Part shown: one piece after another, positions 795 through 34,054 of the stretch | Numbering within the stretch: position 1 is the first letter of the stretch | Layout: every line of letters starts with the position of its first letter | Origin: Fidelibacterota bacterium | GTDB taxonomy: Bacteria; Fidelibacterota; Marinisomatia; Marinisomatales; Marinisomataceae | Direction of reading: 5' to 3' | Assembly: GCA_028140795.1 (NCBI GenBank) | Contig: JAOIOW010000003.1 | Coordinates: forward strand, 60,663-124,662 | Length of the DNA: 64,000 nucleotides | The notes under the pieces: model-generated | Databases searched by the model: none | Told to the model about the DNA's origin: nothing | The model's input: only the letters and a program-made list of their open reading frames with translations | Program-made: the position numbers and the translations under genes

Positions 795-804
795 AATATT
801 CCTC

Positions 805-3573: not shown

Positions 3574-4084
3574 TAATTATCTCCATTATTTGATTGCAGT
3601 TGTCCTGAATAGTCTGATGATCCGTAATAACCTCAATTTTGCATAATGCTTCATACTTTTGTTCTCTTTTTAATATAATTTCTTCAAATACCTCATCTTT
3701 ATTTTGGACATTTAATAATGGCCTAGAATTATCATCTTTAAGCCTATCTAGTAAGATATTTTTAGATGTTTTTAAATAAATGCAATGTTTTGAGCTTAAC
3801 AATTCGTAACTATCTTTGTGTGATACTGCTCCTCCACCAACAGCTATAACAGTATTTTCTTTTAAAATATGTTTTTGTAATTCAGCAAATTCTAACTTTC
3901 TAAAACTTTCTTCTCCCTTTAAAAATAGCTCATTTATGGACATATCAAATGACTTAATTAGTTCATCATCAATATCAATAAAATTCCATCCTAAGCTCAA
4001 AGAAAGAGCTTTTGCGGTGGAAGATTTTCCAGAACCCATCATTCCGATTAAGTATAGCTGATTAATATTTTCCACTGCTTTCAA
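3563..4084 (-). CDS. aroK: Shikimate kinase
   Basis: P-loop 'GMMGSGKSS', 'VIAVGGGAV', and a size of 173 aa. Confidence 0.9.
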   Translation of the reverse strand: MKAVENINQLYLIGMMGSGKSSTAKALSLSLGWNFIDIDDELIKSFDMSINELFLKGEESFRKLEFAELQKHILKENTVIAVGGGAVSHKDSYELLSSKHCIYLKTSKNILLDRLKDDNSRPLLNVQNKDEVFEEIILKREQKYEALCKIEVITDHQTIQDNCNQIMEIINVQ

Positions 4085-7281: not shown

Positions 7282-8622
7282 TTAACCTTGCAGCTCCTCC
7301 GCAATATTGAAAGAGAGTTCTAGCGCTTGATTAGCATTCAATCTTGGATCACAATGCGTATGATATCTTGAATTTAAATCCTCATCGCTCAGTTTATAAA
7401 TACCACCTGTACACTCAGTAACATTTTGTCCGGTCATTTCTAGGTGTATTCCACCCAAATGACATCCTTTATCCTTAAGAATCTTTATTGCCTCTGAAGT
7501 TTCGTTTAATAAAGAACTAAAATCTCTAGTTTTTAGTCCTGAGGAAGATTTTATTGTATTACCATGCATTGGGTCTGATACCCATAAAACTTTTTTTCCA
7601 TTTTTTGTTATTTCGTCAATTAATCCTGGAAGATATTTACGGACTTTGTTTTTGCCATATCTAAAGATCAAAGAAATTTTTCCAGGCTCATTATCTGGAT
7701 TAATTTTATCAATTATTTTAATGAGCTCTTTTGGATCTAAACTTGGTCCACACTTAATACCAATAGGATTATTAATTCCAGAACAATATTCAACATGAGC
7801 ACTATCTACGAATCTAGTCCTATCACCAATCCAAACCATGTGCGATGAAGTAGCAAAAGTTTTGCCAGAAATTGAATCTGTTCTTGTAAGTGCAGATTCA
7901 AATGGTAAATGCAATGCTTCATGACTTGTATAAAAATCTACTGAATTTAGATAGTCTACAGAGGAAATATTTACACCAATAGCCTCAATGAAATCAAGAT
8001 ATTCATTTATTTGGTTTGCTATTTTTTCATATTTTTTTCCCTCGGGTGTAGCTTTTACAAAACCCATATTCCAGGAATTTACTTTTCTTAAATTTGCAAA
8101 TCCGCCTTGTGCAAAAGATCTAATAAGATTAAGTGTAGATGCTGATTGTGAATAAGCTCTCAAAAGTCTTGAAGGGTTAGGTTCTCTTTTTTGTTCAGAA
8201 AATTCAATGCTATTTATTGAATCTCCAAAATAACTTGGTAATGTTTTATCATTAACTGTTTCAAAATCAGATGATCTAGGTTTAGCAAATTGACCAGCAA
8301 TTCTTCCTACTTTAATTACTGGTACCTTCATTTTTGCGGTAAAAATGGCACTCATTTGCAAAATCACTCTAAATGTATCTCTTATGCTATTAGCATTAAA
8401 TTCCTTAAAACTTTCAGCACAATCACCACCTTGAATTAAAAAAGCTTTACCTTCAACAGCTGAAGCAAGTTTTTCTTTAAGAATATTACATTCACCGGCA
8501 AAAACTAATGGTGGAAATTTTTCAATCTTCTTTAACGCTTTTTTTAAAGCATCTTTATCCTTGTATTCAGGAATATGTTTAACGGTGAAATTTTCCCAAG
8601 AATTTTTAGTCCACTTACTCAT
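7282..8622 (-). CDS. DAHP synthase, class II (plant/actinobacterial type)
   Basis: 446 aa. 'QGGDCAESF' and 'RIAGQFAKPRSS' are class II DAHPS signatures. Confidence 0.92.
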   Translation of the reverse strand: MSKWTKNSWENFTVKHIPEYKDKDALKKALKKIEKFPPLVFAGECNILKEKLASAVEGKAFLIQGGDCAESFKEFNANSIRDTFRVILQMSAIFTAKMKVPVIKVGRIAGQFAKPRSSDFETVNDKTLPSYFGDSINSIEFSEQKREPNPSRLLRAYSQSASTLNLIRSFAQGGFANLRKVNSWNMGFVKATPEGKKYEKIANQINEYLDFIEAIGVNISSVDYLNSVDFYTSHEALHLPFESALTRTDSISGKTFATSSHMVWIGDRTRFVDSAHVEYCSGINNPIGIKCGPSLDPKELIKIIDKINPDNEPGKISLIFRYGKNKVRKYLPGLIDEITKNGKKVLWVSDPMHGNTIKSSSGLKTRDFSSLLNETSEAIKILKDKGCHLGGIHLEMTGQNVTECTGGIYKLSDEDLNSRYHTHCDPRLNANQALELSFNIAEELQG

Positions 8623-8882
8623 AATTCATTCCCTTCAATTTTCTTAGAAGCAGAAATTACACTTTGGTATATTTCTTTTAAATATTTTGCTTCTTTTTGA
8701 GAAAATCTTGCATCAATTCTAGCATAAATGGAATTTTCTCGCTTCGAATCTTCAATTGGTATATTATTCTTAGATTTGATTTCACCAATCTTTATAACAG
8801 GATCTAACCTATCTACTAAAAGGTCAAAAATCATATTATCAATGTTATCAATATTTTTTCTTTCATCATTTATTTCAATCAT
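8619..8882 (-). CDS. Chorismate mutase (AroQ class, monofunctional)
   Basis: Helical CM_2-like sequence 'IDNIDNMIFDLLVDRLDPVIKIGEIK...SKRENSIYARI'. I place the start at ATG 8882, preceded by GGAGG at 8891-8887. The track's longer start at 8909 lies inside the upstream hairpin and U-tract. Confidence 0.8.
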   Translation of the reverse strand: MIEINDERKNIDNIDNMIFDLLVDRLDPVIKIGEIKSKNNIPIEDSKRENSIYARIDARFSQKEAKYLKEIYQSVISASKKIEGNEL

Positions 8883-8891
8883 AATTCCTCC

Positions 8892-8924
8892 AAAAAAAAA
8901 CCCTAACATTTTTTGCTAGGGTTT
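8892..8924 (-). terminator. Intrinsic terminator hairpin plus U-tract (terminator arm of the Phe/Tyr attenuator)
   Basis: Minus-strand RNA reads AAACCCUAGC-AAAAAAU-GUUAGGGUUU followed by more U. The A9 run at 8892-8900 on the plus strand gives nine consecutive U, three of them in the stem. The U-tract abuts the GGAGG ribosome-binding site of chorismate mutase. Confidence 0.7.
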
Positions 8925-8950
8925 CTATAGTTTGTGATATAATTATTCTA

Positions 8951-9010
8951 TCAGGCGCCTATAGTCCCCCTGCATCTAAAATAGAAATAATAGTTGTTAA
9001 AATTTTTCAT
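8951..9010 (-). CDS. Candidate 19-aa Phe/Tyr-rich leader peptide MKNFNNYYFYFRCRGTIGA
   Basis: ATG at 9010, TGA at 8953-8951. Three Phe and three Tyr codons fall within codons 4-11. Codons 14-17 (AGGGGGACUAUAG, 8971-8959) can pair with CUAUAGAAACCCU (8930-8918), which overlaps the 5' arm of the terminator. Confidence 0.6.
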   Translation of the reverse strand: MKNFNNYYFYFRCRGTIGA

Positions 9011-9051
9011 CAGAGCATATTAGTGATAAAAATCTAATTGAGAAACAAAAA

Positions 9052-9813
9052 TTATTTTTTTAGGTTTTTTACAAAATTTTCAACAACACCCTTTTTTGTA
9101 TCTTTGAGAACTTTTTTTATAACTGCAGATCCAACTACAGCCCCATCTGAAAAACTATTAAACCAATTAACATCATCATTTGTGCTTATACCAAAACCTA
9201 CCATAAATGGCGTTTCGCTATTATCTTTTACTTTTGCTAAGTAGTTCTTCAAATTATTTTTTGAACTCAGGTCATTACCAGTAATACCTAAAATACTTAC
9301 AGCATATATGAGATCTCCTGCAAGTTTTGAAATTTTCTTAATTCTTTTTTCCGAAGTATTTGGAGCTACAAGAAGTATCGGAGAAATATTTTTATTCTTT
9401 AAATTATTACAAAATTCAACAGATTCATCAAGAGGTAAATCTGGTAGAATAACCCCATCAATTTCTGCATCATTACATTTTTTTATGAAATCCTTTGTAC
9501 CCATCCTAAGAATTGGATTATAATAACCCATTAGCGCAATAGGGACATCAGTTTCCTTTCTAATCTCCTTTACTTGTTCAAAAATTTCAAGTAGCGTAAT
9601 TCCATTTTTTAAAGCTATTTCGTTTGCTTCTTGAATAACTGGTCCATCTGCTTGAGGATCTGAAAAAGGAATACCTATCTCAATCATATCAGCTCCTCCT
9701 TTAATTGCTTCCAAAACTAAATTCTTCGTACTATCTTTATTTGGAAAACCTGCAGTAATAAATACTATTAATTTTTTAGAATCTGTTGCAAAAAGTTCTT
9801 TTATTCTATTCAT
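9052..9813 (-). CDS. trpA: Tryptophan synthase alpha chain
   Basis: '[19 protein letters not shown]' and 'GFGIS' motifs. Confidence 0.95.
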
Positions 9814-11018
9814 AATTCAATACCCAATTCCTTTGCAATAGTATTTATATCTTTATCTCCTCTTCCAGATAAATTCAAAATAACATGTTCATTTTTTTTG
9901 ATATTATTATTTTTATTTTTTAAATAAGCAACAGCATGTGCAGTTTCTAAAGCTGGAATTATTCCCTCTTTTTCAGACAACCACTTGAATGCTTCTAACG
10001 CTTCATCATCCGTTGCTGATGAATATTCAACTCTTTTGGTTTTTTGAAGATAACTGTGTTCTGGACCAATTCCTGGATAATCTAAACCTGCAGATAAAGA
10101 ATAAGGTAAAGCAATTTGACCATCCATACTTTGTAGTAACATTGATGCTGCACCATGTAATACACCAAATTCACCCTTCGTAAGAGTAGCAGCATGCTGA
10201 TTTGTATCAATCCCCTTTCCTGCAGCTTCAACTCCAACTATTTTTACATCATCATCAATGAAAGGATAAAATAAGCCAAGAGCATTAGACCCACCACCAA
10301 CACATGCTATAAGTCTATCAGGTAATTTTTTATTAGTCATATCTGTAAATTGTTTTTTTGTTTCAGTACCAATTACAGATTGAAAATCACGAACAAGCAT
10401 TGGGTATGGATGAGGTCCAACAGAAGAACCAATAATGTAGAATGTATCTTCTACATTTGTTACCCAATCCCTAATTGCTTCATTGGTAGCATCTTTTAAA
10501 GTTTTAGATCCAGAAGTAACAGGTATAACTTTTGCACCCATTAAATTAATTTTAAACACATTTAGCTTTTGACGCTCAATATCTTCCTCGCCCATATAAA
10601 CAATACATTCTAAACCAAATTTAGCAGCTGCTGCTGCAGTAGCTACACCATGTTGTCCTGCTCCTGTTTCAGCAATAATTCTTTTTTTTCCCATTCTATG
10701 TGCCAATAAAATTTGTCCAAGGGCATTGTTTATTTTATGTGCACCGGTATGATTTAGATCTTCCCTTTTAAGCCATACATTAAAACCTAGTTCTTCGGAA
10801 ATATTTTTAGCTAAGTATAATGGAGTTGGTCTACCTCCGTAATGTTTAAGCAAATTAAAAAATTCTTTTTGGAAATTTTTATCTTTTTTGCTCTTTAAAT
10901 ATTCCTGCTCTAATTCATCCAATGCAGGAATAAGAGTTTCAGGAACATATTTTCCACCAAATTCTTCAAAATGCCCATACTTATCAGGCATATTATATTT
11001 TTTAACTAAATTATCCAA
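9810..11018 (-). CDS. trpB: Tryptophan synthase beta chain
   Basis: '[11 protein letters not shown]' (PLP lysine) and 'GGGSNA' motifs. Confidence 0.97.
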
Positions 11019-11643
11019 AACTAAACTCCTTCTTTTTTGTTTGTTTTAAAATTTTGACAATCCTAAAGATTTTTGACTTACTTTTTAATCCAGGACTTTT
11101 TTCAACACCACTATTTATATCAACTGCATGAGGATTGATCTGATTAATACCATCCAAAATATTATTTTCATTTAAACCCCCTGATAGTATGATTGGAAGA
11201 TTGAATTTAACATTTTCAATTATTTTCCAATTAAAGATTTTACCAGTGCCTCCAAATTGATTTCTTGTTCTATTATCAAGCAGAATTGCGTGTACATCAT
11301 AATTATTTATTACATTTAAATCACTTTTTTTTGAAACAGATAAAGCTTTTATGACCGGAACTTTGAAATTATTACAAAATTCAGGTGTTTCATTTCCGTG
11401 TAGCTGAATTGCATCAAGATTTAATTCATTTATGACATCATTAATAATATTTTTACTCTCATTTACAAAAATGCCAATTTTTTTTAACCCAGAAGAACTC
11501 ATGCTGATTTTTTTTGCATTTTCTATATCAACACATCTTGGGCTTTTACCGTAAAATATCATCCCAATTGCAGTTGCCCCTGCATTTTTTGCATGCAAAG
11601 CGTCTTTATAATTAGTTATACCGCAAATTTTCAAATCTATCAT
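11011..11643 (-). CDS. trpF: Phosphoribosylanthranilate isomerase
   Basis: 'KICGIT', 'IQLHGNE' and position between trpC and trpB. Confidence 0.9.
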
Positions 11644-12398
11644 AACTCTTTTATAATTCGTTCAAGTTTTTTTCCGGGATTTTTACTTTTCATCAAAGAT
11701 GTTCCCATAAGTATGGCATCATATCCCAACTGCTCAACAATTTTTATTTTTTTAATACTTTTAAAACCACTTTCTGCAACTTTAAGCGAATCTTTAGGTA
11801 GTTTTGGAAAAAATCTCTCAAATCTTGAAAAATCAAGTTCCATTTTTTTTAAATTTCTACAATTCACGCCTACAATTGTAGGACTAAGCTCGTTAATAGC
11901 TAAAAGGTTTTTTCTATCGTGAATTTCTACTAATGTTTCCATTTTTTCATTTAATCCAAAGCTATAAAGGTCTGCCAAATCATTATAGTTCAAGGCTTCA
12001 GCAATTAATAAGAAAGCGTCAGAGCCATGGCTCATTCCTTGTAAAATTTGTTTTTTACTTATGATAAAATCTTTTTGCATAACAGGAATGTTCACTGCAT
12101 TTTTAATATCCTTTAAAAATTTAATATCACCATTAAAAAATCGTCTATCAGTCAGAACAGAAATAGCTGCAGCGCCAGCATTTTCATAATCTTTAGCAAT
12201 TTGAATATGTTCACCCTTTTTAAGAATTATTCCCTCACTTGGTGATGCAAATTTTATTTCTGCAATTATAGATATTTTGCCTCCTTTTAAAGCTTTTTTT
12301 AAACTGAGTCTTTTATAGTTGGAGCTTTCTAAATGTAGTTCAGGAATTTTCTTAATTTCTGTTTTTTTATGATTCAAAATCTTATCTAAAATATTCAC
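11640..12398 (-). CDS. trpC: Indole-3-glycerol-phosphate synthase
   Basis: 'IIAEIKFASPSEG', 'ISVLTD' and 'VGVNCRNL' motifs. Confidence 0.93.
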   Translation of the reverse strand: MNILDKILNHKKTEIKKIPELHLESSNYKRLSLKKALKGGKISIIAEIKFASPSEGIILKKGEHIQIAKDYENAGAAAISVLTDRRFFNGDIKFLKDIKNAVNIPVMQKDFIISKKQILQGMSHGSDAFLLIAEALNYNDLADLYSFGLNEKMETLVEIHDRKNLLAINELSPTIVGVNCRNLKKMELDFSRFERFFPKLPKDSLKVAESGFKSIKKIKIVEQLGYDAILMGTSLMKSKNPGKKLERIIKEL

Positions 12399-13390
12399 TT
12401 TTGAATACCTTTCAATACTTTAAGAGCAGATAACGAATCGACTGATTCTTCCGCTAAAGAATAACCTTCTTTTAAAGACGTTGCTTTACCTCCAACCATG
12501 ATTCCTGCAGCGGCATTCAGCAAAACTATATCTCTGTTAGGACCTTTTTTTCCATTTAAAATATCCAAAATAATTTTTGCATTAATATCTGAAGTACCTC
12601 CCTGTAAATCTTCATGTTTGGACAATGAAATTCCTATAGACTTTGGATCAAATTTTAAATTGATAATTTTACTATCATTTAAAAAATAAGAAATATTAGA
12701 ATCGCAAGTTGTAGTAAGCTCGTCAAGGCCATCGTCTCCGTTAAAAACCATAACATTCTTTGAACCTAAATTTTTTAAAACTTGTGTTTGAATTTTAGTC
12801 AATGATGGTTCAAAAACTCCCATTGCTTGATTTTTAACATTTGCAGGATTACATAATGGACCTAAAATATTGAAAACTGTTTTAATTTTTAATTTACTTC
12901 TAACATTCATAGCATTTTTTACAGCTGGATGAAAATTTGGAGCAAACATGAAACATATATTATTTTTTTCCAAACTTCGAATGCAATTTTCATTTGATTT
13001 ATTTATATCTACGTTCAATGCTTCGAGAACATCAGCTGAACCTGATTTTGATGTCATAGATCTATTACCGTGTTTAGCTACCTTTATTCCTGCTCCAGCC
13101 ACGACAATTGAGGATGCAGTTGAAATATTAAATGTCCCAGAATAATCTCCGCCTGTACCACACATATCAATAGCAGGAAAATTAAGATCTAATTCAATCA
13201 TAGTATGTCGCATAGCTTTTGCAAAACCAGTTATTTCATCAACTGTTTCTCCTTTTGACCTTAAACCAACTAATAAAGCTGCAATTTGAACGTCATCTAG
13301 ATTTCCTTTCATTAATTCCAGCATAATTTCAAAAGCTTCATTCTCGTTGAGATTTTCTTTTTTTACAACTTTTTTTATTGATTCAATCAT
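12395..13390 (-). CDS. trpD: Anthranilate phosphoribosyltransferase
   Basis: 'CGTGGD', 'KHGNRSMTSKSGSADVLEALN' motifs. Confidence 0.95.
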   Translation of the reverse strand: MIESIKKVVKKENLNENEAFEIMLELMKGNLDDVQIAALLVGLRSKGETVDEITGFAKAMRHTMIELDLNFPAIDMCGTGGDYSGTFNISTASSIVVAGAGIKVAKHGNRSMTSKSGSADVLEALNVDINKSNENCIRSLEKNNICFMFAPNFHPAVKNAMNVRSKLKIKTVFNILGPLCNPANVKNQAMGVFEPSLTKIQTQVLKNLGSKNVMVFNGDDGLDELTTTCDSNISYFLNDSKIINLKFDPKSIGISLSKHEDLQGGTSDINAKIILDILNGKKGPNRDIVLLNAAAGIMVGGKATSLKEGYSLAEESVDSLSALKVLKGIQK

Positions 13391-13954
13391 CTATATTTCC
13401 AAAAAATTTTTGATTATGACTTTACCATCTTTTGTAGCAATCGATTCAGGGTGAAATTGAACTCCATAAAGATTTGAAGTCTTGTGTTTAAGTCCCATGA
13501 TGGTTTTATTATCAGTTTCAGCAATTACTTCCAAGCAAGTAGGTAAAGAGGCTTTTTCAACAATTAGCGAATGATATCTAGTGGCATTAAAGCTATCATT
13601 TATACCTTTAAATAATTTTGAACCAAAATGATTAACATTTGAGACTTTACCATGCATAATTTTTTTCGCTTGAACTATTTCACCACCAAAAGCATATCCA
13701 ATTGCCTGATGTCCCAGACAAACACCTAATATTGGAACTTTTTGATAAAAATGTTGAATGACTTCAACAATATTTCCTGCGTTTTCAGGTTTTCCCGGCC
13801 CAGGAGAAATAACTATATGGGAAGGATTAATTTCTTTAACATTTTTTAAGGACGTTTCATCATTTCTTTTGGTAACAATATCTTTTTTTATATCACCAAT
13901 ATATTGCACAAGATTATAAGTAAAGCTATCGTAGTTATCGATAACAAGTATCAT
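13391..13954 (-). CDS. trpG: Anthranilate synthase component II (glutamine amidotransferase)
   Basis: 'GVCLGHQAIG' catalytic Cys and 'QFHPES' motifs. Confidence 0.93.
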   Translation of the reverse strand: MILVIDNYDSFTYNLVQYIGDIKKDIVTKRNDETSLKNVKEINPSHIVISPGPGKPENAGNIVEVIQHFYQKVPILGVCLGHQAIGYAFGGEIVQAKKIMHGKVSNVNHFGSKLFKGINDSFNATRYHSLIVEKASLPTCLEVIAETDNKTIMGLKHKTSNLYGVQFHPESIATKDGKVIIKNFLEI

Positions 13955-15432
13955 TTTATCAACCCATTTTCAGCAAGATCAATTGCAGCATTCATGACTT
14001 TTGCTTTATTTACAGTTTCATCATACTCTTTTGATGGAATCGAATCATAAACAATACCAGCTCCAGCTTGAAAGTATGCAATTTCGTTTTTTAAAATCAT
14101 AGTTCTTATTGAGATGCAAGTGTTTAAGTTTCCGTTAAAATCTATAAAACCAATCGCTCCTGAGAAAATACCCCTACTATCATTTTCTAATTCATTAATT
14201 ATCTCCATTGCTCTTATCTTTGGTGCTCCTGAAACTGTACCGGCAGGAAAACCACTTTTTAAAGCATCAAAAATGTTTTTATCTTTCATAAGTTTTCCTC
14301 TGACATCTGAAACGATGTGCATCACATGTGAATACATCTCAATATTCATTTTTTCTTTAATTTTGACACTATCAAATTCAGAAACTCTTCCAACATCATT
14401 TCTTCCTAAATCAAGCAACATCAAGTGTTCAGCTAATTCCTTTTTATCGTTTAACAAATCTTGAGCATTTCTTTCATCTTCAATTGCATTTTTACCCCTC
14501 AATCTAGTACCAGCTATTGGACGAATTTCAACTTCACCTTCTTGAACTTTAATCATAAGCTCAGGAGAAGCACCAATAACATCAAATGAATCAATTTTTA
14601 AATGGAACATATATGGTGAAGGATTAATAGACCTTAATGCTCTGTAAACATTCAAAGGTTCTGATAAGGTTTTTCGCTCAAATCTTTGACTCAAAACAAC
14701 TTGAAAAATATCGCCAGACTTAACATATTTTTTTGCTTTATTTACAATTTTTTCAAATTCACTTTTTTTAAAGTTAGAGATTGTCGGAAATGATTTTGTA
14801 ACTAATGGAGTTCTAAATTCGTGATTCGAATGTAATAAATTTCCAATTGAATCAACTCTAGAATTAGCCTCATCAAAAAGTTCATTTAAATTTTCACTTC
14901 TTTCAAGATTGACGTTTGATACTACAATGGCGTCACCATTTAAGTGATCAAAAACTATTATGTCTTCAAAAAGCATAAATTTTGAATCAGGTATTTGTAA
15001 ATATTTCGTTTTTTTAACTGGAACATTTTCGAAAAAATCAATCATTTCATATCCAAAGTAACCAACAATTCCTCCTGTAAAATGTGGAAGTTGATCTAGT
15101 TTTTGGCTTTTATGTGAATCATTTAAATTTTTCAAAAAATCAAAGAAGTTAGCATCTATTTTTTTTCGTTTACCATTAATAACCTCAAATAAAGACCTCT
15201 GGTCATATTCAAAGATCCTTGATGGATTTATGCCAACATAAGAATATCTACCATTTTTCTTTGCTTTCTCCACAGATTCAAGAATGAATCCGTAATCGGA
15301 GTGCATTGATAAATTTGCCCAAGCTGCAGTAGGTGTAATAGTATCTGCCATTATTCTTTTGAAAAAAGGCACAACTTTTCTTCCATCTTTTGCAAGCAAG
15401 TTAAATTCTTTTTTTGATAATTTATTTTTCAT
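13951..15432 (-). CDS. trpE: Anthranilate synthase component I
   Basis: 'LESVE', 'PSPYMF', 'GTVSGAPKIRAMEII' and 'GAGIV' motifs. Confidence 0.95.
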   Translation of the reverse strand: MKNKLSKKEFNLLAKDGRKVVPFFKRIMADTITPTAAWANLSMHSDYGFILESVEKAKKNGRYSYVGINPSRIFEYDQRSLFEVINGKRKKIDANFFDFLKNLNDSHKSQKLDQLPHFTGGIVGYFGYEMIDFFENVPVKKTKYLQIPDSKFMLFEDIIVFDHLNGDAIVVSNVNLERSENLNELFDEANSRVDSIGNLLHSNHEFRTPLVTKSFPTISNFKKSEFEKIVNKAKKYVKSGDIFQVVLSQRFERKTLSEPLNVYRALRSINPSPYMFHLKIDSFDVIGASPELMIKVQEGEVEIRPIAGTRLRGKNAIEDERNAQDLLNDKKELAEHLMLLDLGRNDVGRVSEFDSVKIKEKMNIEMYSHVMHIVSDVRGKLMKDKNIFDALKSGFPAGTVSGAPKIRAMEIINELENDSRGIFSGAIGFIDFNGNLNTCISIRTMILKNEIAYFQAGAGIVYDSIPSKEYDETVNKAKVMNAAIDLAENGLIK

Positions 15433-19019: not shown

Positions 19020-19516
19020 GATTTCTCCAATAATTGTAAATACGATTTAAATAGCAATCCACCTCCACCGCTATAACCTACAAGCTCTCCATTACTTCCT
19101 ACTATTCTGTGACAAGGTATGATAATAGGGATTTTATTTGAACCACTAACTCTCCCAACTGCTCTAGCAGATTTAGGTTCTTTAATTTTTTCAGCAACCT
19201 GCTTATAACTTTTTGTTTTTCCGTAAGGAATTTTGGACATTTCCTTAAAAACTTTTAATGAAAACTCTGAACCTTCAATATGAACTGGAATATCAAATTT
19301 TTTTAACTTTCTGGTAAAATAAGCATTCAATTGATTTTGGACCTCTTTAGCAAATTTTGAAGAACTATTTTTATTAATTTTTAAAGATAACTGCCTTTCC
19401 ATTAAATCATTTTTATTCTCCGAAAATGATAAATCAAACAGCTTATTATCATTGAATAAAATTCGAAAATAAAAATGAAGATTATTGACTTGAAATATTT
19501 TTTGATTCATAACCAA
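19016..19516 (-). CDS. ogt: Methylated-DNA--protein-cysteine methyltransferase
   Basis: Active-site 'IPCHRIV', 'YGKTKSYKQVA' and 'GGLLFKSYLL'-type C-terminus. Confidence 0.88.
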   Translation of the reverse strand: MVMNQKIFQVNNLHFYFRILFNDNKLFDLSFSENKNDLMERQLSLKINKNSSSKFAKEVQNQLNAYFTRKLKKFDIPVHIEGSEFSLKVFKEMSKIPYGKTKSYKQVAEKIKEPKSARAVGRVSGSNKIPIIIPCHRIVGSNGELVGYSGGGGLLFKSYLQLLEKS

Positions 19517-19836
19517 AAATTGATATCATCATGAACTTTTACTGTTTGGACTCTCATTTTACTATACCATTGCTTGCCATTTTTTTTTGCTTCGATATGT
19601 AGAAAATTTTTTCTCCATATATCTATGCTTTCTAAATCTTGCCAATAAGATATAAAAGTATTTTCCTTCCCATCACCAAATTTTTCGTATCCAAGATAAC
19701 CAGGTATTTCTGTCACTGCATCAATAGTTTTTTGATCCATATCAGCATATCCTTCAAGATTGTCACTCAGTTTGTAAGAAAATATCACTGCATAGCAGTC
19801 TTTAACATTTTTTGGAATTTTATGAATTTCGCCCAT
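19507..19836 (-). CDS. ABM-domain (antibiotic biosynthesis monooxygenase-like) protein
   Basis: 109 aa with a ferredoxin-like ABM pattern '...GYLGYEKF...TFISYWQDLESIDIWRKN..H'. Confidence 0.6.
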   Translation of the reverse strand: MGEIHKIPKNVKDCYAVIFSYKLSDNLEGYADMDQKTIDAVTEIPGYLGYEKFGDGKENTFISYWQDLESIDIWRKNFLHIEAKKNGKQWYSKMRVQTVKVHDDINFWL

Positions 19837-19874
19837 TAAGCCTTACTTATAGATTGAATATATAGATGAACAAA

Positions 19875-19985
19875 TTAGTATCTCAAAATAAATCTGCTAC
19901 CACATTTAGTGCATTTTGCAAGAAAACTAATATACTCATACCACTTGGTTCTTACCCAAGTATGTTTGCATTTTAAACATTTCAT
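19875..19985 (-). CDS. Unannotated 36-aa zinc-ribbon-like ORF MKCLKCKHTWVRTKWYEYISFLAKCTKCGSRFILRY
   Basis: Below the track's size cutoff. ATG at 19985, TAA at 19877-19875. It has a CxxC-x18-CxxC arrangement and sits 38 nt upstream of the ABM gene on the same strand. Confidence 0.4.
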   Translation of the reverse strand: MKCLKCKHTWVRTKWYEYISFLAKCTKCGSRFILRY

Positions 19986-20038
19986 AATTTTTAAAATTTA
20001 AGTATTTTCTTCAAAAAAACTATATAATATCAAAAATA

Positions 20039-20671
20039 ATGAACCCTAAAATACTAAAAATTATCATTGCTGGAATGGCCATTTGTATTGTCTTTTTATC
20101 GTACAAATTCAATGAAGTAAATAACGATTTAAAGAAATACAAAGAGTATTATAAAGACTTATCAATTATGTATCTAAATGAAGTAATTGAAGCTCCTAAA
20201 CTTGAAGCGCCATCAGCCGAAGATATGAAAGTTACAACAATAGATTTTGATAGCAACATGTTACAATTCTCCGATCTTGAAAATAATAATTTCAGTATTC
20301 AAAATTTTAAGGGAAAAAATCTTTTTATCAACTATTGGGCAACTTGGTGTAATCCTTGTTTAGCCGAAATGCCCTACATGGCTGAGCTGTATGAAAAATA
20401 CAAAGATGAAGAAAATATTATATTTTTGTACTTATCTAGAGAAAAATTAGAGACAATAAAAAATTATGTACCAAAAGATGAAAGTCTTCAAAAACTGCCA
20501 ATTTACAAGATTATCACAGATGATGAATTCTTTGCAACTTCAGGTATTCCTACTACCTTCATTGTTAATTCAGATGGAGAAGTTATTGTAAAGGATCTTG
20601 GAAGCGCTTTTTGGAATGACGAATCTGTTTTCAAATTTATTGATAACCTAATTGGTAAAAATGAAATCTAA
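20039..20671 (+). CDS. Membrane-anchored TlpA/ResA-like thiol:disulfide oxidoreductase
   Basis: N-terminal TM segment 'ILKIIIAGMAICIVFLSY' and thioredoxin motif 'YWATWCNPCLAEMP'. Confidence 0.85.
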   Translation: MNPKILKIIIAGMAICIVFLSYKFNEVNNDLKKYKEYYKDLSIMYLNEVIEAPKLEAPSAEDMKVTTIDFDSNMLQFSDLENNNFSIQNFKGKNLFINYWATWCNPCLAEMPYMAELYEKYKDEENIIFLYLSREKLETIKNYVPKDESLQKLPIYKIITDDEFFATSGIPTTFIVNSDGEVIVKDLGSAFWNDESVFKFIDNLIGKNEI

Positions 20672-22253
20672 TATTTCAATTAATACAGATGATCACTTTC
20701 CATACCTTGGAAACGGAATTCAATTTAATGAACATTTATTTGGTTTAGAGTTTGATGCAAACTTAATTCAACAAACATCAGAATTGATATGGCAACCTAA
20801 TTCAACCTTGCCATACTCGACTCTCAAAAAACTTCCAGCTCCTTATAACATATTATCAGATATTGCACTTGAAATGACTGTGCACAATAATTCAAAAATA
20901 GGTTTAATTGGACAGAATGCACTTTTTAATGAAGTAAAATTAATTGATGATGGATTAATGGATAAATTTATTTTGGATGTACAAAATCATATTGCTAATC
21001 CAACAAAAGAATCAGCTGAATTAATTGCAAACGTAAGATGCTGGTCCTCATGGTTAGCAAATGGAATTAAAATTGAGCCAATCTTTAACGGAAAAAAGAA
21101 AGCATGTTCATTCATTCCATGGCCACTATCAGGACTGCTTTTATTATCTTCAAGAATTACAGGTCAACAACCTGAATTTGAGTATGCTGCAGATTATGTA
21201 TTACGTTCTGGAATTCTTCCAGATCAAGAATTAGATAATTATGATGATTTGAATAAAAATATAGATTATATAAGATCAATTAAGCCTTTAGTTGCTTTCC
21301 ATGATTTTGATGGAAACGAACAAGGATTTAGAATGACTCACCTTGCCATGGAAAGAACTTCAAATATGATGATTGAAAATGCTCATTTAGCAGTTGAAGG
21401 AAATGATATTAAGGAAAATCTTGAAAAAATTGAATTAGCTACAATGCAGTCTAATCAATTATTTAATGCAATGTGGAAAGTAAGTGAACCATTGCTCTAC
21501 AACAAAGAAGTAAGGATTTTTATTCAAGGACTTTTTGGAAATCAAGGAAGTATCTATCCAAAAGAGGGTTTATTTTTTGAAAATTGTGGAGATATATTTA
21601 ACGAAGATTATAACTCTAAAGGTTGCTATTTATCCAATTTACATGGCCAAACTGGTGCAAACAGTTCATATCATCCTATCGCAGATGAAATTACTGGTGT
21701 TGGTAATCATACTCACGCATACATCGCAGACGAAATAGTTGATAAATCTATGATCAAAGGAGTGTTAGAGAAAGGGTATGTAAGCTCTGACGATTTACCA
21801 AAAAATGTGGAAGTTGATTCACTAACAAAATTACTAAAATCATTTAGAGTTGGATACAGACCTCCTGCGCATCATGCCATGATTGTTAAAACAAGAAATA
21901 TTATTCAAAACTCAAATTATTTTTCAAAGATTGAATCTAGTAATGATAATAAAAAAATCTTAGCTAGTGCAGTAAGATGGATTATTCAACATCGAATAGA
22001 TCATTATAAAATGGTTGTTAGCTATATTCTACGAGCGCCAGATCCTTATCAGCATCAAACAAAAGCTAAAGGTACTGGAGGGTCTCCTACCCCTACCTTC
22101 CTTCCAAAAATGTTTACTCACAGCATAGATAGATTACAGAGTTTAGTAGAAAATGAAAATTTACCATGGGCAGATAAACTTATTGATATTACGTCAAATC
22201 ATGAAACTGCAATGCAACAATTCCAAAAAATTGCAATGCAATCTGAAAATTAA
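20661..22253 (+). CDS. Indoleamine 2,3-dioxygenase (IDO)-like heme protein
   Basis: Collinear matches to human IDO1 recalled from memory. 'LHGQTGANSS' matches 'FAGGSAGQSS'. 'YRPPAHHAMI' matches 'YMPPAHRNFL'. 'HRIDHYKMVVSYIL' matches 'LRSYHLQIVTKYIL', which holds the proximal His. 'KAKGTGGSP' matches 'EAKGTGGTD'. The track start at 20652 is TTG; the first ATG is at 20661. Confidence 0.8.
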   Translation: MKSNISINTDDHFPYLGNGIQFNEHLFGLEFDANLIQQTSELIWQPNSTLPYSTLKKLPAPYNILSDIALEMTVHNNSKIGLIGQNALFNEVKLIDDGLMDKFILDVQNHIANPTKESAELIANVRCWSSWLANGIKIEPIFNGKKKACSFIPWPLSGLLLLSSRITGQQPEFEYAADYVLRSGILPDQELDNYDDLNKNIDYIRSIKPLVAFHDFDGNEQGFRMTHLAMERTSNMMIENAHLAVEGNDIKENLEKIELATMQSNQLFNAMWKVSEPLLYNKEVRIFIQGLFGNQGSIYPKEGLFFENCGDIFNEDYNSKGCYLSNLHGQTGANSSYHPIADEITGVGNHTHAYIADEIVDKSMIKGVLEKGYVSSDDLPKNVEVDSLTKLLKSFRVGYRPPAHHAMIVKTRNIIQNSNYFSKIESSNDNKKILASAVRWIIQHRIDHYKMVVSYILRAPDPYQHQTKAKGTGGSPTPTFLPKMFTHSIDRLQSLVENENLPWADKLIDITSNHETAMQQFQKIAMQSEN

Positions 22254-24487
22254 AAATTATCTGTTACTAAATGCTCCATGAAGAAATCAGCCATCTTCTT
22301 ATAAAGATGGTATCTATTCTTCCATCCATCAGCTGGATGATCTTCGCTTAAAAAATTGTTATTGGACATTCCATGGTTCGCATTTGAATAAATGAACATC
22401 TCCATATCTTTTCCATGTTCTGCATACGCTTTAGCAAGCTTTATTGAATGCTGATGATGAACATTATCGTCTGCATTTCCATGTATTTGGAGTAGATGTC
22501 CTTTAGCTTTATCTACGTGTGTAAGTACTGAGGCATTTTTATATCCTTCTGGATTTTCTTCAACTAACCCCATATATCTTTCTGTCCAAATAGTATCATA
22601 TAGTAACGGCTCAACATTTGGAGCAATAGATATACCAGCTTTAAAATAATCGCTGGCTAAAGTCATACACATGTTAGTCAAATAACCGCCGCCACTCCAG
22701 CCCCATATTCCGATGTTATCTCCATCAACATAAGTCAGACCTTGTAAATATTTTGCTGCTTCAATATGATCCTTAACAAGATATTTACCGTAATCACCGT
22801 AAGCTAAATCTTTAAATGCTTTTCCTCTTCCACCAGTACCTCTATTATCAAATGAAAAAATAATAAAATCTCTACTTGCAAAATATTGATGTAAAGTGTG
22901 ACTTCCTGCACCCCATCTGTTAACAACTAATTGTGACCCAGGACCACCATAATTATAAAGAATAACAGGATATTGTTTCATTGGATCAAAATTATGAGGG
23001 TATGTAATTAAGGCATTAAGCCTAGTACCATCATCTGTAAAAATATTAATTAGTTGAGGATAGGTTAGATTATAAGCATCAAATTTAGATCTATCTGTCT
23101 CTCTGAGAGTTCTAACAATCTTTCCATTATCTTCTCTTATGAGTGTTTTCGGAGGAACTGTAAAACTTGAATATGAATTAATGAAATAGTTTAATGTTGG
23201 AGAGAAAGATGATGAATGAGAGCCTTTTTCTTTGGTAAGTCTTTTAAGTCTGGAACCATTGAATCTAATGGAATAAAGATGATTTTCTGTTTCAGTCTCT
23301 TTCTTAGCTGAGAAATAAATTGTTTCATTTCTATAATCAATTGCACTAATATTATTTACCTCCCAATCTCCTCTTGTGACTTGATTTATTGGTCTTCCAT
23401 CAGGTCTATTTCTGTAAATATGACTAAATCCATCTTTTTCAGAAATCCAAATGATTTCTCCATCATCCATAATCGCAAAACTAAAACCTCTCTTAGTAGT
23501 CCATGTGCCAATTTCACCTGGAACAATAAAAGGATCTCTGTCAATCCAAGAATCATTTGAATCATTTAGGATTAGATCTGCCCCATTAGTATCGAAATCA
23601 TATTTGTATAAATTCCAATCATTTTGCTTCCTATTCAAAGTAGCAAAATAAAGATTAGATGAATTGGTTTGCCAAATGATATCGGGAATATAATATGCCG
23701 TATCTGGTAAATTGACTGATCTATATTCTTTATTTTTTAAATCTAATATACTAATCGAAACAATAGGATTATCTTCTCCGGTTTTTGGATACCTAATATA
23801 CTTAACAACTGGATATTGTGCTTCATAATCAACCAAAGCATACTCTTTAACATATGTTTGATCTTCTCTTATAAACGCAATGTAATCACTATTAGGACTC
23901 CACTTGTATGAATCATAAGTACCAAACTCTTCCTCATAAACCCATCCAAAATGTCCGTTAAGAATATCTTCGCTCCCGTCAAAAGTAAGCTGTTCTTCAA
24001 GCTCGTTAGTTAAATCAAAAAGATATAAATTGTTATCATTTCGAACGAATGCTAGCTTGTTTGAATCTGGAGAAAATTTTACATTTCTTAAACTATCAGG
24101 ATCACTGGTGACAGGCGTTAAAGATTCTGATGATATATCGTACACATAATATGAACCATAAGAAGAATGTCTCCATAGTTTTACTGAATTCTTTTTTAAA
24201 AGCAACTTTGTTTGATCTGGACTAAATGAATACGAAAAATTGCTTATAATATCTTTTTTGACTGTAAAGGCTTTTAAGGTATCATTTGAAGCAAGATTAT
24301 ATTCATAAAATTCTAACCCTTCATCATTTCTTTCCGAAAAATAATATGAATCAGAACTATTCTTCCAATCATATCTTCCAATTGATTCGGTTCTAAATGT
24401 GCCATCAAGTACGTTTTCTAAAGATATTTTATCTTGGGGAAAAAGCGTACCAAACATTAAAATAATAATTAAGTATTTATATCTCAT
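22250..24487 (-). CDS. Dipeptidyl-peptidase IV family serine peptidase (S9B)
   Basis: Signal peptide, beta-propeller-like N-terminal half, 'GIWGWSGGGY' nucleophile, and a late 'GNADDNVH' motif. Confidence 0.88.
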   Translation of the reverse strand: MRYKYLIIILMFGTLFPQDKISLENVLDGTFRTESIGRYDWKNSSDSYYFSERNDEGLEFYEYNLASNDTLKAFTVKKDIISNFSYSFSPDQTKLLLKKNSVKLWRHSSYGSYYVYDISSESLTPVTSDPDSLRNVKFSPDSNKLAFVRNDNNLYLFDLTNELEEQLTFDGSEDILNGHFGWVYEEEFGTYDSYKWSPNSDYIAFIREDQTYVKEYALVDYEAQYPVVKYIRYPKTGEDNPIVSISILDLKNKEYRSVNLPDTAYYIPDIIWQTNSSNLYFATLNRKQNDWNLYKYDFDTNGADLILNDSNDSWIDRDPFIVPGEIGTWTTKRGFSFAIMDDGEIIWISEKDGFSHIYRNRPDGRPINQVTRGDWEVNNISAIDYRNETIYFSAKKETETENHLYSIRFNGSRLKRLTKEKGSHSSSFSPTLNYFINSYSSFTVPPKTLIREDNGKIVRTLRETDRSKFDAYNLTYPQLINIFTDDGTRLNALITYPHNFDPMKQYPVILYNYGGPGSQLVVNRWGAGSHTLHQYFASRDFIIFSFDNRGTGGRGKAFKDLAYGDYGKYLVKDHIEAAKYLQGLTYVDGDNIGIWGWSGGGYLTNMCMTLASDYFKAGISIAPNVEPLLYDTIWTERYMGLVEENPEGYKNASVLTHVDKAKGHLLQIHGNADDNVHHQHSIKLAKAYAEHGKDMEMFIYSNANHGMSNNNFLSEDHPADGWKNRYHLYKKMADFFMEHLVTDNF

Positions 24488-24529: not shown

Positions 24530-26257
24530 TTATGGAATGAACCAACCCATAGAATCATAAACTATTCCAACCGAAACGAATCCTTGGATAGCAAAAAGTA
24601 CTCCAGTTAATACTAAACCTAACACTGAGCCCATAACACCATTGTTTGCAGCATAGCCAAAGATAGTAGTTGGTTTATAAATCAACTCTTTATAATTGAT
24701 AGATTCATCAACTTGCTGTAATAAGGCTTTTGCACTCGATAAATCGTTAATTCTTTCCTCTCCTTTTCCAGCAAGCTTTAGCTCCCAAATTTCTTCTTCA
24801 ATAATGAAAAGTTCATTTCTGATAAAATCCCTATGCTTTGCGCTAAGAGATTGCAGTTGAATGGCTTTTGAAATTGCAAATAAGCAAATAACTGAAACAG
24901 CAACAATTACTGTTCCAATTAAATACACAGTGGAAATATGGTGCTTCATGCCTGTCCATACTATCAGATTTAATATTCCAACACATAACAAGGAATAAAA
25001 AATTAAAATTGAAGTATAGCCCTGAATTCGTAGATAATATGTTTCACCAAATGATCGTAAAACATTTCTCATGTTCATCCAAGCAAACACATTGACTCTT
25101 TTTTGTAAATCGACAAAGATTCTATCTTCTTTTTTATCTTTATAAAAACTTTTAAAAATTGAAGAAAGTTTTAAACCAGGGTAAGATACAAGCTCTCCCA
25201 ATTTCTTGGATGTAGCATATCTTCTTTCATAGTCTGCTGCACAAACCATTCCAAACATCATAAGTTGAAATCCATTGAAAAGTCCAAGAAGAGTTGCTAC
25301 AGAAATAATTTTTTCTTGAGGAGTAACTCCAAACAAGTCCATTCCATAAAAATATTTTGACAAGAATGCTGCTACAGGTAATAATAACATACATAAATAT
25401 GTCAATTGCTGCATATATTTGAGCGCAGGTAAACGATAAACTGAATTAATTATATTGTAAAGAATAAATCCTGAAGGAAGTTCATTTTCTTTTGTTGAGC
25501 TTGTGGAAGATGGAAATAGCTCATTATTTGACTCATTAATTAATTTATCTCTAGTTTCTTTGCATGGTTCAAATGGAATTCCTTGTAAACAAATATCATT
25601 TTCATCCATAGCAATAGTTAATTCATCTTCAATTAATCCTGGAAACTCCCAAGGGCGCATCCATCCTTGAGCAATTAATCTTCTGACAGTTTTATTATCA
25701 TCCCAATCTGGAGCTGGTAAGCATAAGCGTTCTAAATCCTCTGGTCTAAAATATCCATACTTAGTAGCAATAATTAGTCTTCTAAAAAATAAGAGCAAGT
25801 AAGCTAAAATCATGTGAAATGGATCAATATTAAGAATCAGCTCTTTATCTGAAAAAAGTGCTAAAAATAGCCCAATATTCATCAACCATGATGCAGGATA
25901 AATAATCAACCAATTATTACGGATTGTCGATAAAGAATGGTGTTTTGTAGATATTGCAATTAACTGTCTATTTTGAGAAACGTGCCATGCCCTAGATAAA
26001 GAACCTTCTAAAAATATTGCTGCTATTGGCGAAAAAATGACCGGAGGTAAATTTTCATATATAAAGGATTTCCAAAATGCTTTCCATGAAAAGCTTACTG
26101 GAGAATGAAATTTATCAACTGTTTTATCTTTCGACGCGCTTCTTAATTTTGCAGCTTGATATGGTGAATCTATGCCTGATATAAATTTTTCATCATCTTG
26201 ATTGGAAGGCTTTCTAAGACTCAAAAATGATTGAATTTTTTGGATTGTTTTGCTCAT
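24530..26257 (-). CDS. Multi-pass membrane protein, no recognisable family
   Basis: 575-aa ORF with about 8 hydrophobic helices, two soluble loops and a C-terminal coiled-coil-like stretch. I recognise no motif. Confidence 0.6.
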   Translation of the reverse strand: MSKTIQKIQSFLSLRKPSNQDDEKFISGIDSPYQAAKLRSASKDKTVDKFHSPVSFSWKAFWKSFIYENLPPVIFSPIAAIFLEGSLSRAWHVSQNRQLIAISTKHHSLSTIRNNWLIIYPASWLMNIGLFLALFSDKELILNIDPFHMILAYLLLFFRRLIIATKYGYFRPEDLERLCLPAPDWDDNKTVRRLIAQGWMRPWEFPGLIEDELTIAMDENDICLQGIPFEPCKETRDKLINESNNELFPSSTSSTKENELPSGFILYNIINSVYRLPALKYMQQLTYLCMLLLPVAAFLSKYFYGMDLFGVTPQEKIISVATLLGLFNGFQLMMFGMVCAADYERRYATSKKLGELVSYPGLKLSSIFKSFYKDKKEDRIFVDLQKRVNVFAWMNMRNVLRSFGETYYLRIQGYTSILIFYSLLCVGILNLIVWTGMKHHISTVYLIGTVIVAVSVICLFAISKAIQLQSLSAKHRDFIRNELFIIEEEIWELKLAGKGEERINDLSSAKALLQQVDESINYKELIYKPTTIFGYAANNGVMGSVLGLVLTGVLFAIQGFVSVGIVYDSMGWFIP

Positions 26258-32269: not shown

Positions 32270-34054
32270 CTATATTTTAAGAACTGCCAATAGGGCTTCC
32301 TGAGGAACTTCAACCCTTCCGATCATTCGCATTCTTTTTTTACCCTTTTTCTGCTTTTGAAGTAATTTATTTTTTCTAGTAACATCTCCACCGTAGAGTT
32401 TTTCAGTAACATTTTTTCTAAACGGAGCAATATTAGTTCTTGCAATAACCCTTGATCCAATTGAAGCTTGAATAGGGATTTGAATTTGATGCCTTGGAAT
32501 TAACTCCTTTAATTTCTGGCATAAGGCTAAACCTCTATGATAAGAGTCTTTCTTGGCACATATCATTGATAATGCATCAACAGGTTCTTTATTTATTAAA
32601 ATATCTAGCTTATCGAGTTTGCTAGTTTGATATTCTTTAAATGTGTAGTCAAATGAGGCGTAACCTTTTGAGCCGGATTTCATTTTATCATAAAAATCAA
32701 AAAGAATTTCACCTAAAGGTAGTTCATATATAAGTTGCACTTTTGATTTAGATAAATATTGAGTGGATTTGTATTTCCCTCTTTTCTCTTCACATATCTT
32801 CATTACATTACCTATATAATCAACAGGAGTAAGAATTTCTGCTGTAACAATAGGCTCCATTAAACTTTCAAGGAATTTTGGTTCAGGTAATAAAGCAGGA
32901 CGTTGAACCTCAACCTGAGAACCATCTTTTAGATTAGCCAAATATTTTACATTTGGACTGGTGGTAACAATTGAAAGGTCAAACTCCCTTTCCAATCTCT
33001 CTTGAATAATTTCCATATGAAGCAACCCAAGGAATCCACATCTATAACCAAAACCAAGCGCATCACTTACCTCTGGTTCAAAAGATAGCGAAGCATCATT
33101 CAGCTTAAGTTTTTCAAGTGCAGTTCGTAAATCGTCATAATCTCCAGCATCCGATGGAAAAAGACCTGAAAAAACCATAGGTTTTATCTTTTGGAATCCA
33201 GGTAAAGGGTTTTTGCAAGGCTTGTTAAAATTTGTGACGGTATCTCCAGCCAAAACATGTTCAATATCTCTGACATTCGCTATTATATATCCTACTTCTC
33301 CAGCTTTAATGGAATCTGCTTTTTTTCTTTCAATAACAAAATGGCCTACTTCATCTACATCATAGTGTGTATTATGGGCGAAAAACTTAATTCTACTACC
33401 TTTTTTCAATGAACCTTCGTAAACCCTTACATAAGCAACAACTCCTCTATATCTATCATATATTGAGTCAAAAATTAAACCTTTAAATTCTTCATTTTTT
33501 GGTTCGTCTGGAGGAGGAATTTTATCAATGATTGTAGTTAAAATATCTTCAATTCCTTCTCCTGTTTTAGCGCTTGCTAGCAAAATATCATCCTTTGAAC
33601 AACCGACTAGTTCAATAATTTGAGACGTAACATTTTCGATATCGGCATTAGGTAAATCAACTTTATTTATAACAGGGATAATTTCTAAATCATTATCAAT
33701 AGCTAATAAATAATTTGTGACAGTTTGAGCTTCTATTCCTTGAGCTGCATCTACAATTAACAATGCACCTTCACTAGCAGACAGTGTTCTTGAAACTTCA
33801 TAAGTGAAATCAACATGTCCTGGCGTATCAATTAAATTTAAAATATGTCCATTATAATCAATGCGAATCGAATGACTTTTAATGGTAATACCTCTTTCTC
33901 TTTCCAATTCCATATTATCTAAAACTTGATCTTGCATCTTTTTCTTTGAAATGGTTCCAGTATGCTCAAGAAGTCTGTCGGCAAGTGTGGACTTACCGTG
34001 ATCTATATGTGCAATAATACAGAAATTTCTGATAGGTTTTGTCGTACTACTCAT
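32270..34054 (-). CDS. lepA: Elongation factor 4
   Basis: 'IAHIDHGKST', 'DTPGHVDF', 'NKVDL' and a LepA-type C-terminus. Confidence 0.97.
   Translation of the reverse strand: MSSTTKPIRNFCIIAHIDHGKSTLADRLLEHTGTISKKKMQDQVLDNMELERERGITIKSHSIRIDYNGHILNLIDTPGHVDFTYEVSRTLSASEGALLIVDAAQGIEAQTVTNYLLAIDNDLEIIPVINKVDLPNADIENVTSQIIELVGCSKDDILLASAKTGEGIEDILTTIIDKIPPPDEPKNEEFKGLIFDSIYDRYRGVVAYVRVYEGSLKKGSRIKFFAHNTHYDVDEVGHFVIERKKADSIKAGEVGYIIANVRDIEHVLAGDTVTNFNKPCKNPLPGFQKIKPMVFSGLFPSDAGDYDDLRTALEKLKLNDASLSFEPEVSDALGFGYRCGFLGLLHMEIIQERLEREFDLSIVTTSPNVKYLANLKDGSQVEVQRPALLPEPKFLESLMEPIVTAEILTPVDYIGNVMKICEEKRGKYKSTQYLSKSKVQLIYELPLGEILFDFYDKMKSGSKGYASFDYTFKEYQTSKLDKLDILINKEPVDALSMICAKKDSYHRGLALCQKLKELIPRHQIQIPIQASIGSRVIARTNIAPFRKNVTEKLYGGDVTRKNKLLQKQKKGKKRMRMIGRVEVPQEALLAVLKI

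Follow-up and report, generated by a model that had tools for sequence, protein, structure and literature searches.

A TlpA-like thioredoxin gene that overlaps an IDO-like haem dioxygenase gene in Marinimicrobia: a conserved pair, probably without a shared reaction

Why should a gene for a membrane-anchored thioredoxin overlap a gene for a haem dioxygenase? The question is raised by a 64,000-nucleotide stretch of DNA from a Fidelibacterota bacterium (GenBank assembly GCA_028140795.1, contig JAOIOW010000003.1, positions 60,663 to 124,662), the whole of which we call the window. In it, a ResA/TlpA-type thiol-disulfide oxidoreductase gene, here called tlpA, runs directly into a gene of the IDO family. 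An initial annotation, made from the sequence alone, pointed to this arrangement and raised two possibilities, that of haem or redox handling on behalf of the dioxygenase and that of an unrecognised indole- or tryptophan-modifying module. Our analysis indicates that the observation is correct and that the functional suggestion over-reaches. With moderate confidence, we favour a lineage-specific, co-transcribed pair of genes that are biochemically independent of one another, one specifying a periplasmic ResA/TlpA-like reductase and the other a cytoplasmic long-form IDO.

The host of the pair is a Marinimicrobia (SAR406) genome, and the IDO-like protein of the window is 99% identical to that of a Candidatus Marinimicrobia (SAR406) metagenome-assembled genome (MAG; locus L003). 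Within the window, tlpA occupies positions 20039–20671 of the plus strand and encodes 210 amino acids (aa). The IDO-like gene, which encodes 530 aa, follows on the same strand at 20661–22253. The two overlap by 11 nt (20661–20671): the IDO ATG at 20661 lies upstream of the tlpA stop codon, TAA, at 20669–20671. A TTG at 20652 is open too, and starting there lengthens the overlap to 20 nt; both lengths had been given in the initial annotation and both agree with the sequence. Because the N-terminus MK(S/K)NI is conserved, with all IDO-like homologues beginning in this way, we place the start at ATG 20661.

The pairing is not unique to this genome. Specifically, 39 loci came from a genome scan that used the IDO alignment, and a TlpA orthologue lies directly upstream of the IDO gene in all 33 of the Marinimicrobia loci that include upstream DNA. 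Scanning metagenomes with the TlpA alignment brought in a further 56 loci in which TlpA is at least 50% identical; every such TlpA with enough downstream DNA is followed by an IDO gene. The next TlpA-family genes, which reside in other contexts, drop sharply to at most 38% identity. The gene-neighbourhood comparison returned adjacency in 83/83 Marinimicrobia loci. Junction lengths, measured in the 33 genome-derived loci, are all tight. The junction is −11 nt in most loci with IDO identities of at least 76% (one locus has −17), and it becomes a gap of +2 to +7 nt in loci with IDO identities of 62–74%.

The pair is also isolated on its strand. Upstream, a 202-nt spacer (19837–20038), the sole non-coding gap adjoining the pair and its presumed promoter region, separates tlpA from a divergent minus-strand gene at 19507–19836. 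This neighbour is weakly ABM-like, its ABM matches scoring below the Pfam cut-off. Downstream, dpp4 (22250–24487, minus strand, with DPPIV_N and Peptidase_S9 domains) is convergent with the IDO-like gene, and the stop codons of the two genes overlap by 4 nt (22250–22253), which marks the end of the unit. In the relatives, the genes flanking tlpA and IDO are always on the opposite strand, and a third same-strand gene has never been gained. The layout is therefore as first described, a two-gene unit divergent from the gene before it and convergent with, and overlapping, the gene after it. From the −11 to +7 nt junction and the strand isolation, it is a sound inference that tlpA and IDO form a co-transcribed, stand-alone unit, as the initial annotation had proposed. 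Termination–reinitiation could possibly couple their translation as well.

What, then, does conserved adjacency of this kind mean? The window has 31% GC and is ~96% coding, and its same-strand neighbours mostly overlap or lie no more than 10 nt apart. Because 31 of its 52 same-strand adjacent open reading frame (ORF) pairs overlap, the overlap of tlpA and IDO is uninformative. Moreover, synteny extends over the entire region, pga-dlh-ogt / tlpA-IDO / dpp4-surA-accA, throughout the clade. Within that region, dlh and ogt, an unrelated pair that encodes a secreted hydrolase and a DNA methyltransferase, respectively, are adjacent in 61/64 loci and overlap in the window too. The adjacency of tlpA and IDO is conserved solely within this one syntenic Marinimicrobia clade, not in phylogenetically independent lineages. 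These features suggest that the pairing is weak evidence of a functional link.

Outside the clade, IDO-family genes do without the partner: no thioredoxin neighbour is present in any of nine out-of-clade contexts. One of these, L013, comes from a Flavobacteriaceae MAG (AqS4, JAMJVX010000018.1), in which an intact IDO copy, 82% identical, lies between sdhA and sdhB. The insert (5476–8016) consists of the IDO gene, a VOC/glyoxalase-family gene, and a gene for a 114-aa transmembrane protein, and its DNA similarity to Marinimicrobia is essentially confined to the IDO gene. The arrangement suggests that the IDO gene alone was transferred horizontally into a succinate dehydrogenase operon. We considered a tlpA remnant here, because of a similarity between the 28 nt before the IDO ATG and the 3′ end of tlpA; we do not rely on it, the matching stretch being short and rich in AT. 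In a second context, L001, an IDO gene 52% identical to ours sits beside LysE/EamA/MFS transporters. L039–L041 and L122/L123 are proteobacterial contexts, and L002 and L124/L125 are eukaryote-like contigs in which the IDO gene has Arf/Ras, FHA, and IFT52 neighbours. Ten long family members (621–794 aa) have neither a thioredoxin nor any other added Pfam domain, so there is no fusion among them. The proposal of haem or redox handling, or of a tryptophan module, consequently goes unsupported: the pairing is confined to one syntenic clade in which dlh-ogt is almost as stable, and the out-of-clade contexts, the lack of fusions, the lack of an invariant cysteine, and the differing predicted compartments of the two proteins (both described below) all speak against it.

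The identity of each protein bears on the argument. We consider the IDO-like protein first. Pfam IDO (PF01231) matches residues 190–463 at 40.8 bits (cut-off 26), and precomputed PF01231 annotation exists for 53/58 of its homologues. A profile built from 12 members of the IDO-like family matches human IDO1 at E 3e-8 in two blocks. An AlphaFold2 model (pLDDT 82.9, pTM 0.87), when searched with Foldseek, gives best matches that are all human IDO1, with TM-scores of 0.77–0.80 (IDO1-normalised) over ~460 columns. Indeed, the best 50 PDB matches are all IDO1 or IDO2 (E ~1e-9), with target-normalised TM-scores of 0.74–0.80 for IDO1 chains. By sequence and by model, the protein is a genuine divergent member of the IDO fold.

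Its predicted active site agrees with this assignment. In a conservation set of 27 sequences with 28–94% identity, His448 (codon 22002–22004), which aligns to the proximal haem ligand of IDO1, His346, is invariant (‘ehRidhykmvvsyil’ against ‘SLRSYHLQIVTKYIL’). Likewise invariant is Arg285 (21513–21515), which aligns to IDO1 Arg231, a ligand of the tryptophan carboxylate (‘vRifikGlrGn’ against ‘LRIYLSGWKGN’). The KGTGG loop (G471–G474) downstream of His448 is invariant, and its Thr472 corresponds to Thr379 of the IDO1 JK-loop. His227 (21339–21341) occupies the position of IDO1 Ser167 and is invariant in the 27 family members; because it does so, the best single PDB match is the IDO1 S167H mutant, 6cxu. 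TDO carries a histidine at the equivalent distal-pocket position. Most likely, the protein oxidises L-tryptophan or a close analogue, a prediction made from these aligned residues. In agreement with the initial annotation, the protein has neither a hydrophobic segment nor a signal-like N-terminus (maximum 19-residue Kyte-Doolittle value, KD19, of 1.2). Alignments of the IDO-like family, including that of the 27 sequences, contain no invariant cysteine. The long-form clade to which the protein belongs is rare: 39 clusters at E<1e-30 among 1.84 billion representatives, with canonical IDOs appearing only at E~1e-10 in the same search. Its members come from SAR406, a few proteobacterial MAGs, and eukaryote-like contigs.

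The TlpA-like protein has one strongly hydrophobic segment, at residues ~5–23 (20051–20107; KD19 maximum 2.07), and no other segment exceeds a KD19 of 1.6. This putative signal-anchor is retained across orthologues. The active-site motif WCNPC spans residues 103–107 (20345–20359), so that the anchor and the motif reported initially are both confirmed. Pfam Redoxin (53.8 bits), AhpC-TSA (46.6), and Thioredoxin_8 (42.5) all exceed their cut-offs, and Thioredoxin is matched too. Against the NCBIfam models, in contrast, the protein falls below the cut-offs for ResA (NF002854, 85.3/170 bits), TlpA (NF047696, 64.6/230), and DsbE (TIGR00385, 34.5/123). As judged from its sequence, it is a family member and the equivalogue of no named enzyme. 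The nearest solved relative is Bacillus anthracis ResA (4nmu; 76 bits, E 2e-20), and TlpA (1jfu; 50.6 bits) is also among the best in a PDB sequence search. An alignment of 10 orthologues with 55–89% identity has 66 invariant columns, among them W100–P112, WCNPC, and the cis-Pro loop GIPTTF; CNPC is kept in 32/32 complete orthologues examined. Between the anchor and the thioredoxin domain lies a conserved, Tyr/Lys-rich juxtamembrane linker of ~45 residues (24–69; 20108–20245) with the pattern YKxYYKxLSIxYLNEIMEAPELEAP. In this part of the alignment, Y22, K35, Y38, K39, Y45, P53, and P58 are invariant. We know of no such linker in ResA or TlpA.

The thioredoxin domain presumably resides on the periplasmic face, an orientation that follows the precedent of ResA, TlpA, and CcmG. 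Because the anchor shows a weak charge bias (orthologue means of +1.5 on the N-terminal side and +0.15 on the C-terminal side, a slight positive-inside tendency), the topology is inferred, not shown. The initial annotation had likened the protein to the reductases of cytochrome maturation. A role in cytochrome c maturation is unsupported by context: in the 83 loci, there is no ResB/ResC/CcdA-type gene adjoining the pair.

The notion we favour is as follows. Transcription would start in the spacer upstream of tlpA and run through both genes. Ribosomes that end tlpA at TAA 20669–20671 could restart at the IDO ATG at 20661. The signal-anchor of the TlpA-like protein would hold the CNPC domain at the periplasmic face, where, by homology, it may reduce disulfides of envelope proteins; by analogy to ResA and TlpA, its clients are possibly apocytochromes c or copper-centre assembly proteins. 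The IDO-like protein, for its part, would be a soluble cytoplasmic haem-b enzyme in which Arg285 and Thr472 serve the amino-acid moiety, His448 is proximal, and the TDO-like His227 is distal. Most likely, it would form N-formylkynurenine by adding O2 to the indole 2,3-bond of L-tryptophan or of a close analogue. The two genes probably became neighbours in the ancestor of the clade and stayed so within a frozen, 96%-coding neighbourhood. They would share expression and no reaction.

Several observations weigh against so loose a relationship. First, the adjacency of tlpA and IDO, without exception in the 83 loci, is the most stable in the region. Second, the flanks have been remodelled repeatedly, with three neighbour states upstream and three downstream, and the junction has stayed intact, which is operon-like. 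Upstream, over the 83 loci, the neighbour is a small transmembrane protein in 53, ogt in 18, and the ABM-like gene in 6; downstream, it is dpp4 in 53, an ENPP-type phosphodiesterase in 15, and an HhH-GPD glycosylase in 2. Third, this TlpA subtype was never seen without IDO, in scans that used patterns (WATWCNP, CLAEMPxM) derived from IDO-linked sequences, and hence biased towards the IDO-linked set, and that are blind to diverged tlpA in Marinimicrobia lacking IDO. In a protein search with TlpA, the matches listed are all at least 92% identical, which makes that search uninformative on distant orthologues outside the IDO context. Fourth, in the lineage of the window itself, the charge bias about the TlpA anchor is neutral, +1 versus +1, so that a cytoplasm-facing domain, if unlikely, is conceivable. 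Finally, the conserved linker keeps direct coupling of the two proteins alive as an alternative.

The first three of these observations fit a shared-condition operon, in which the proteins have no contact and a single promoter has been selected for a state that both require. Examples of such a state are haem sufficiency and an oxic or oxidative condition, the latter calling for the dioxygenase, which consumes O2, together with a reductant in the periplasm that would serve oxidase, cytochrome, or repair systems. Consistent with this idea, the junction is invariant while the flanks change, every copy of the unit is preceded by a spacer of its own and none includes a third same-strand gene, and the TlpA subtype co-distributes with IDO. 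On the other side, we find no recognisable regulator or operator, and a sigma-70 consensus scan gives 18 sites versus 16.8 expected in shuffles, which is chance level. The equally unrelated dlh-ogt pair is almost as stable, and IDO was acquired and kept in an sdh operon without TlpA. We therefore regard selection for a common condition as unlikely, albeit a serious contender.

A closer partnership, in which the thioredoxin serves the dioxygenase directly, strikes us as improbable. It could do so by keeping the enzyme or a partner reduced, by assisting in the acquisition or loading of haem, or by processing, at the membrane, a product derived from tryptophan or indole; its thioredoxin domain would then possibly face the cytoplasm. 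The 83/83 adjacency is in keeping with such service, as are an overlap or 2–7 nt gap that permits translational coupling, the TlpA orthologue never being seen apart from IDO, the ambiguous anchor charge bias in the lineage of the window, and the conserved ~45-residue juxtamembrane linker. However, the IDO-like protein lacks an export signal, while the characterised ResA, TlpA, and CcmG relatives are all extracytoplasmic. The haem b of IDO is bound non-covalently, without any requirement for thiol chemistry of the CxxCH type, and the family here has no invariant cysteine. Nor do the nine out-of-clade contexts supply a thioredoxin neighbour or the long homologues a fusion, and the intact copy in the sdh operon persists without tlpA. 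To our knowledge, a thioredoxin–haem-dioxygenase partnership has not been described for any IDO or TDO, and in the literature we found nothing that links IDO or TDO with TlpA, or that concerns IDO in Marinimicrobia. It would be a long shot, then, that SAR406 possesses a module of its own in which the dioxygenase needs a membrane-tethered CNPC thioredoxin, with its conserved juxtamembrane linker, to mature, to be redox-poised, or to have its product handled. If that were true, a haem dioxygenase would be seen to depend on a membrane thiol-reductase, a requirement new to science, and this in one of the most abundant groups of uncultured bacteria in the ocean. That the pair is an annotation artefact, with one or both ORFs not real genes or the overlap arising from a wrong start codon, is barely conceivable: a mechanical ORF listing does pick TTG 20652 over ATG 20661, but both ORFs have significant family matches, their full-length orthologues number in the dozens and are clearly constrained, and the conserved MK(S/K)NI N-terminus fixes the start at 20661.

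If the two genes are biochemically independent, as we favour, the locus serves as a worked example of how weakly adjacency argues for functional coupling when a genome is streamlined, even if the genes are tightly spaced, overlap, and stay together throughout a clade. Of more interest are the uncharacterised long-form IDO clade and the position of its SAR406 member near a complete set of genes for the biosynthesis of aromatic amino acids. A contiguous biosynthesis supercluster spans 432–15432 of the window on the minus strand. It holds genes for prephenate dehydrogenase, prephenate dehydratase, aroQ, aroB, aroK, aroC, aroE, aroA, and a class-II DAHP synthase, and it continues with trpA-B-F-C-D-G-E. 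The trp genes (trpEGDCFBA, 9052–15432, minus strand) are separated from the start of tlpA by 4.6 kb, close to the 5 kb of the initial annotation, and the placement of the IDO gene near the supercluster is syntenic in relatives. With its TDO-like distal histidine, the SAR406 long-form IDO is a candidate entry point for the catabolism of tryptophan or for NAD synthesis by the kynurenine pathway. A glutamine-dependent NAD synthetase gene (nadE) is located at 34047–35630 (minus strand), 12 kb from the IDO gene. Two neighbours were considered as kynurenine-pathway partners (a formamidase, for example) and rejected: the ABM-like gene, whose matches are below cut-off and which is absent in most relatives, and the DLH hydrolase, which has a signal-peptide-like N-terminus. 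For pathway reconstruction, OZ243041.1 would be a convenient closed genome; this 969,550-bp sequence (L029), labelled a complete chromosome, carries the tlpA-IDO unit.

Additional features surround these genes. In most relatives, a ybjQ-family gene and a gene for a 73-aa transmembrane protein, smTM, lie directly upstream of tlpA on the minus strand. The two are seen at L029 (4772–5301) and at 52 other loci; the lineage of the window lacks both and has only the 202-nt spacer. At the far end of the unit, ~37 nt past the IDO stop and inside the 3′ end of dpp4, is a bidirectional hairpin (22290–22311) with an 8-bp stem and a T-rich tract following on both strands. As a weak candidate, it could be a shared terminator of the convergent IDO and dpp4 genes; terminator-like sites number 5 versus 1.4 expected in shuffles. 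Beyond dpp4 lies a gene for a 575-aa multi-pass membrane protein without a Pfam match (24530–26257, minus strand); of the close relatives that are otherwise syntenic, some have this gene between dpp4 and surA and others lack it. We found no TlpA paralogue in the 64-kb window; a second WCxPC-type motif, WCRPC, occurs near the C-terminus of a 333-aa ORF (42950–43951, minus strand).

Other observations concern individual relatives. One metagenome contig, L095 (585–2210), of 2.4 kb and with a low coverage of ~2x, was set aside as evidence. Here, tlpA breaks off after residue ~128, and SRPBCC-like and SDR genes follow where IDO would be expected; the contig is a chimera of the assembly or else represents a rare variant that has been rearranged or pseudogenised. 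A ferrochelatase gene lies 3 kb upstream of the L013 insert. In L001, a 1-kb non-coding gap upstream of the IDO gene holds two copies of a repeat (5189–5320 and 5729–5851) containing two minus-strand ORFs for near-identical peptides (MTFLNQTTIYVALSGLSVG.LRFEGLHPSLLYVALSG). The Limnobacter and Pseudomonadales homologues, at L040 (5665–7848) and L041 (2134–4200), are 727 and 688 aa in length and have a large extra insert after the conserved Arg, around ‘RLPI(T/Q)AVEG...’, with housekeeping genes around them. The family members on eukaryote-like contigs (L002, L124, and L125; proteins P0057–P0061, P0065, and P0071) possess N-terminal extensions of 40–120 residues that resemble organelle targeting peptides.

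How does the pair compare with systems that are understood? Like IDO1 and IDO2, the IDO-like protein has a two-domain, all-helical fold, in its AlphaFold2 model, and no signal peptide. With IDO1, it has in common the correspondences H448 = H346, R285 = R231, and T472 = T379, and a GxxGxxSS loop (G329–S336). It differs from IDO1 in being only 15–18% identical and in its length, 530 aa against ~400; the model adds a beta-rich N-terminal start, an insert at ~288–330, and a C-terminal helical extension. Further differences are the histidine that replaces Ser167 and, in the place of Phe164, an additional invariant arginine, Arg224. The distal pocket histidine is a point of likeness to TDO/KynA, whose reaction and haem chemistry the protein would be expected to share. 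In contrast to TDO, the protein shows the monomer-type, two-domain architecture of IDO, not the TDO tetramer fold, and among the matches listed from Pfam, profile, and Foldseek searches, there is no TDO sequence or fold match. The window contains neither kynB nor kynU near the IDO-like gene.

The TlpA-like protein, similarly, shares with Bacillus ResA, Bradyrhizobium TlpA, and CcmG-DsbE an N-terminal anchor, a thioredoxin fold with WCxPC, and the cis-Pro loop GIPTTF. The active site is CEPC in ResA and CVPC in TlpA; the protein of the window has CNPC and, unlike both, the conserved juxtamembrane linker of ~45 aa. Its gene, moreover, adjoins an IDO-like gene, not resBC, ccs, ccdA, or sco. Finally, the region resembles the streamlined marine genomes with SAR11-type packing in its dense coding, its overlapping neighbours, and its stably adjacent unrelated pairs, such as dlh-ogt. 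It departs from them at precisely the place that raised our question: the tlpA-IDO junction is the most invariant of the region, and the unit stands isolated on its strand.

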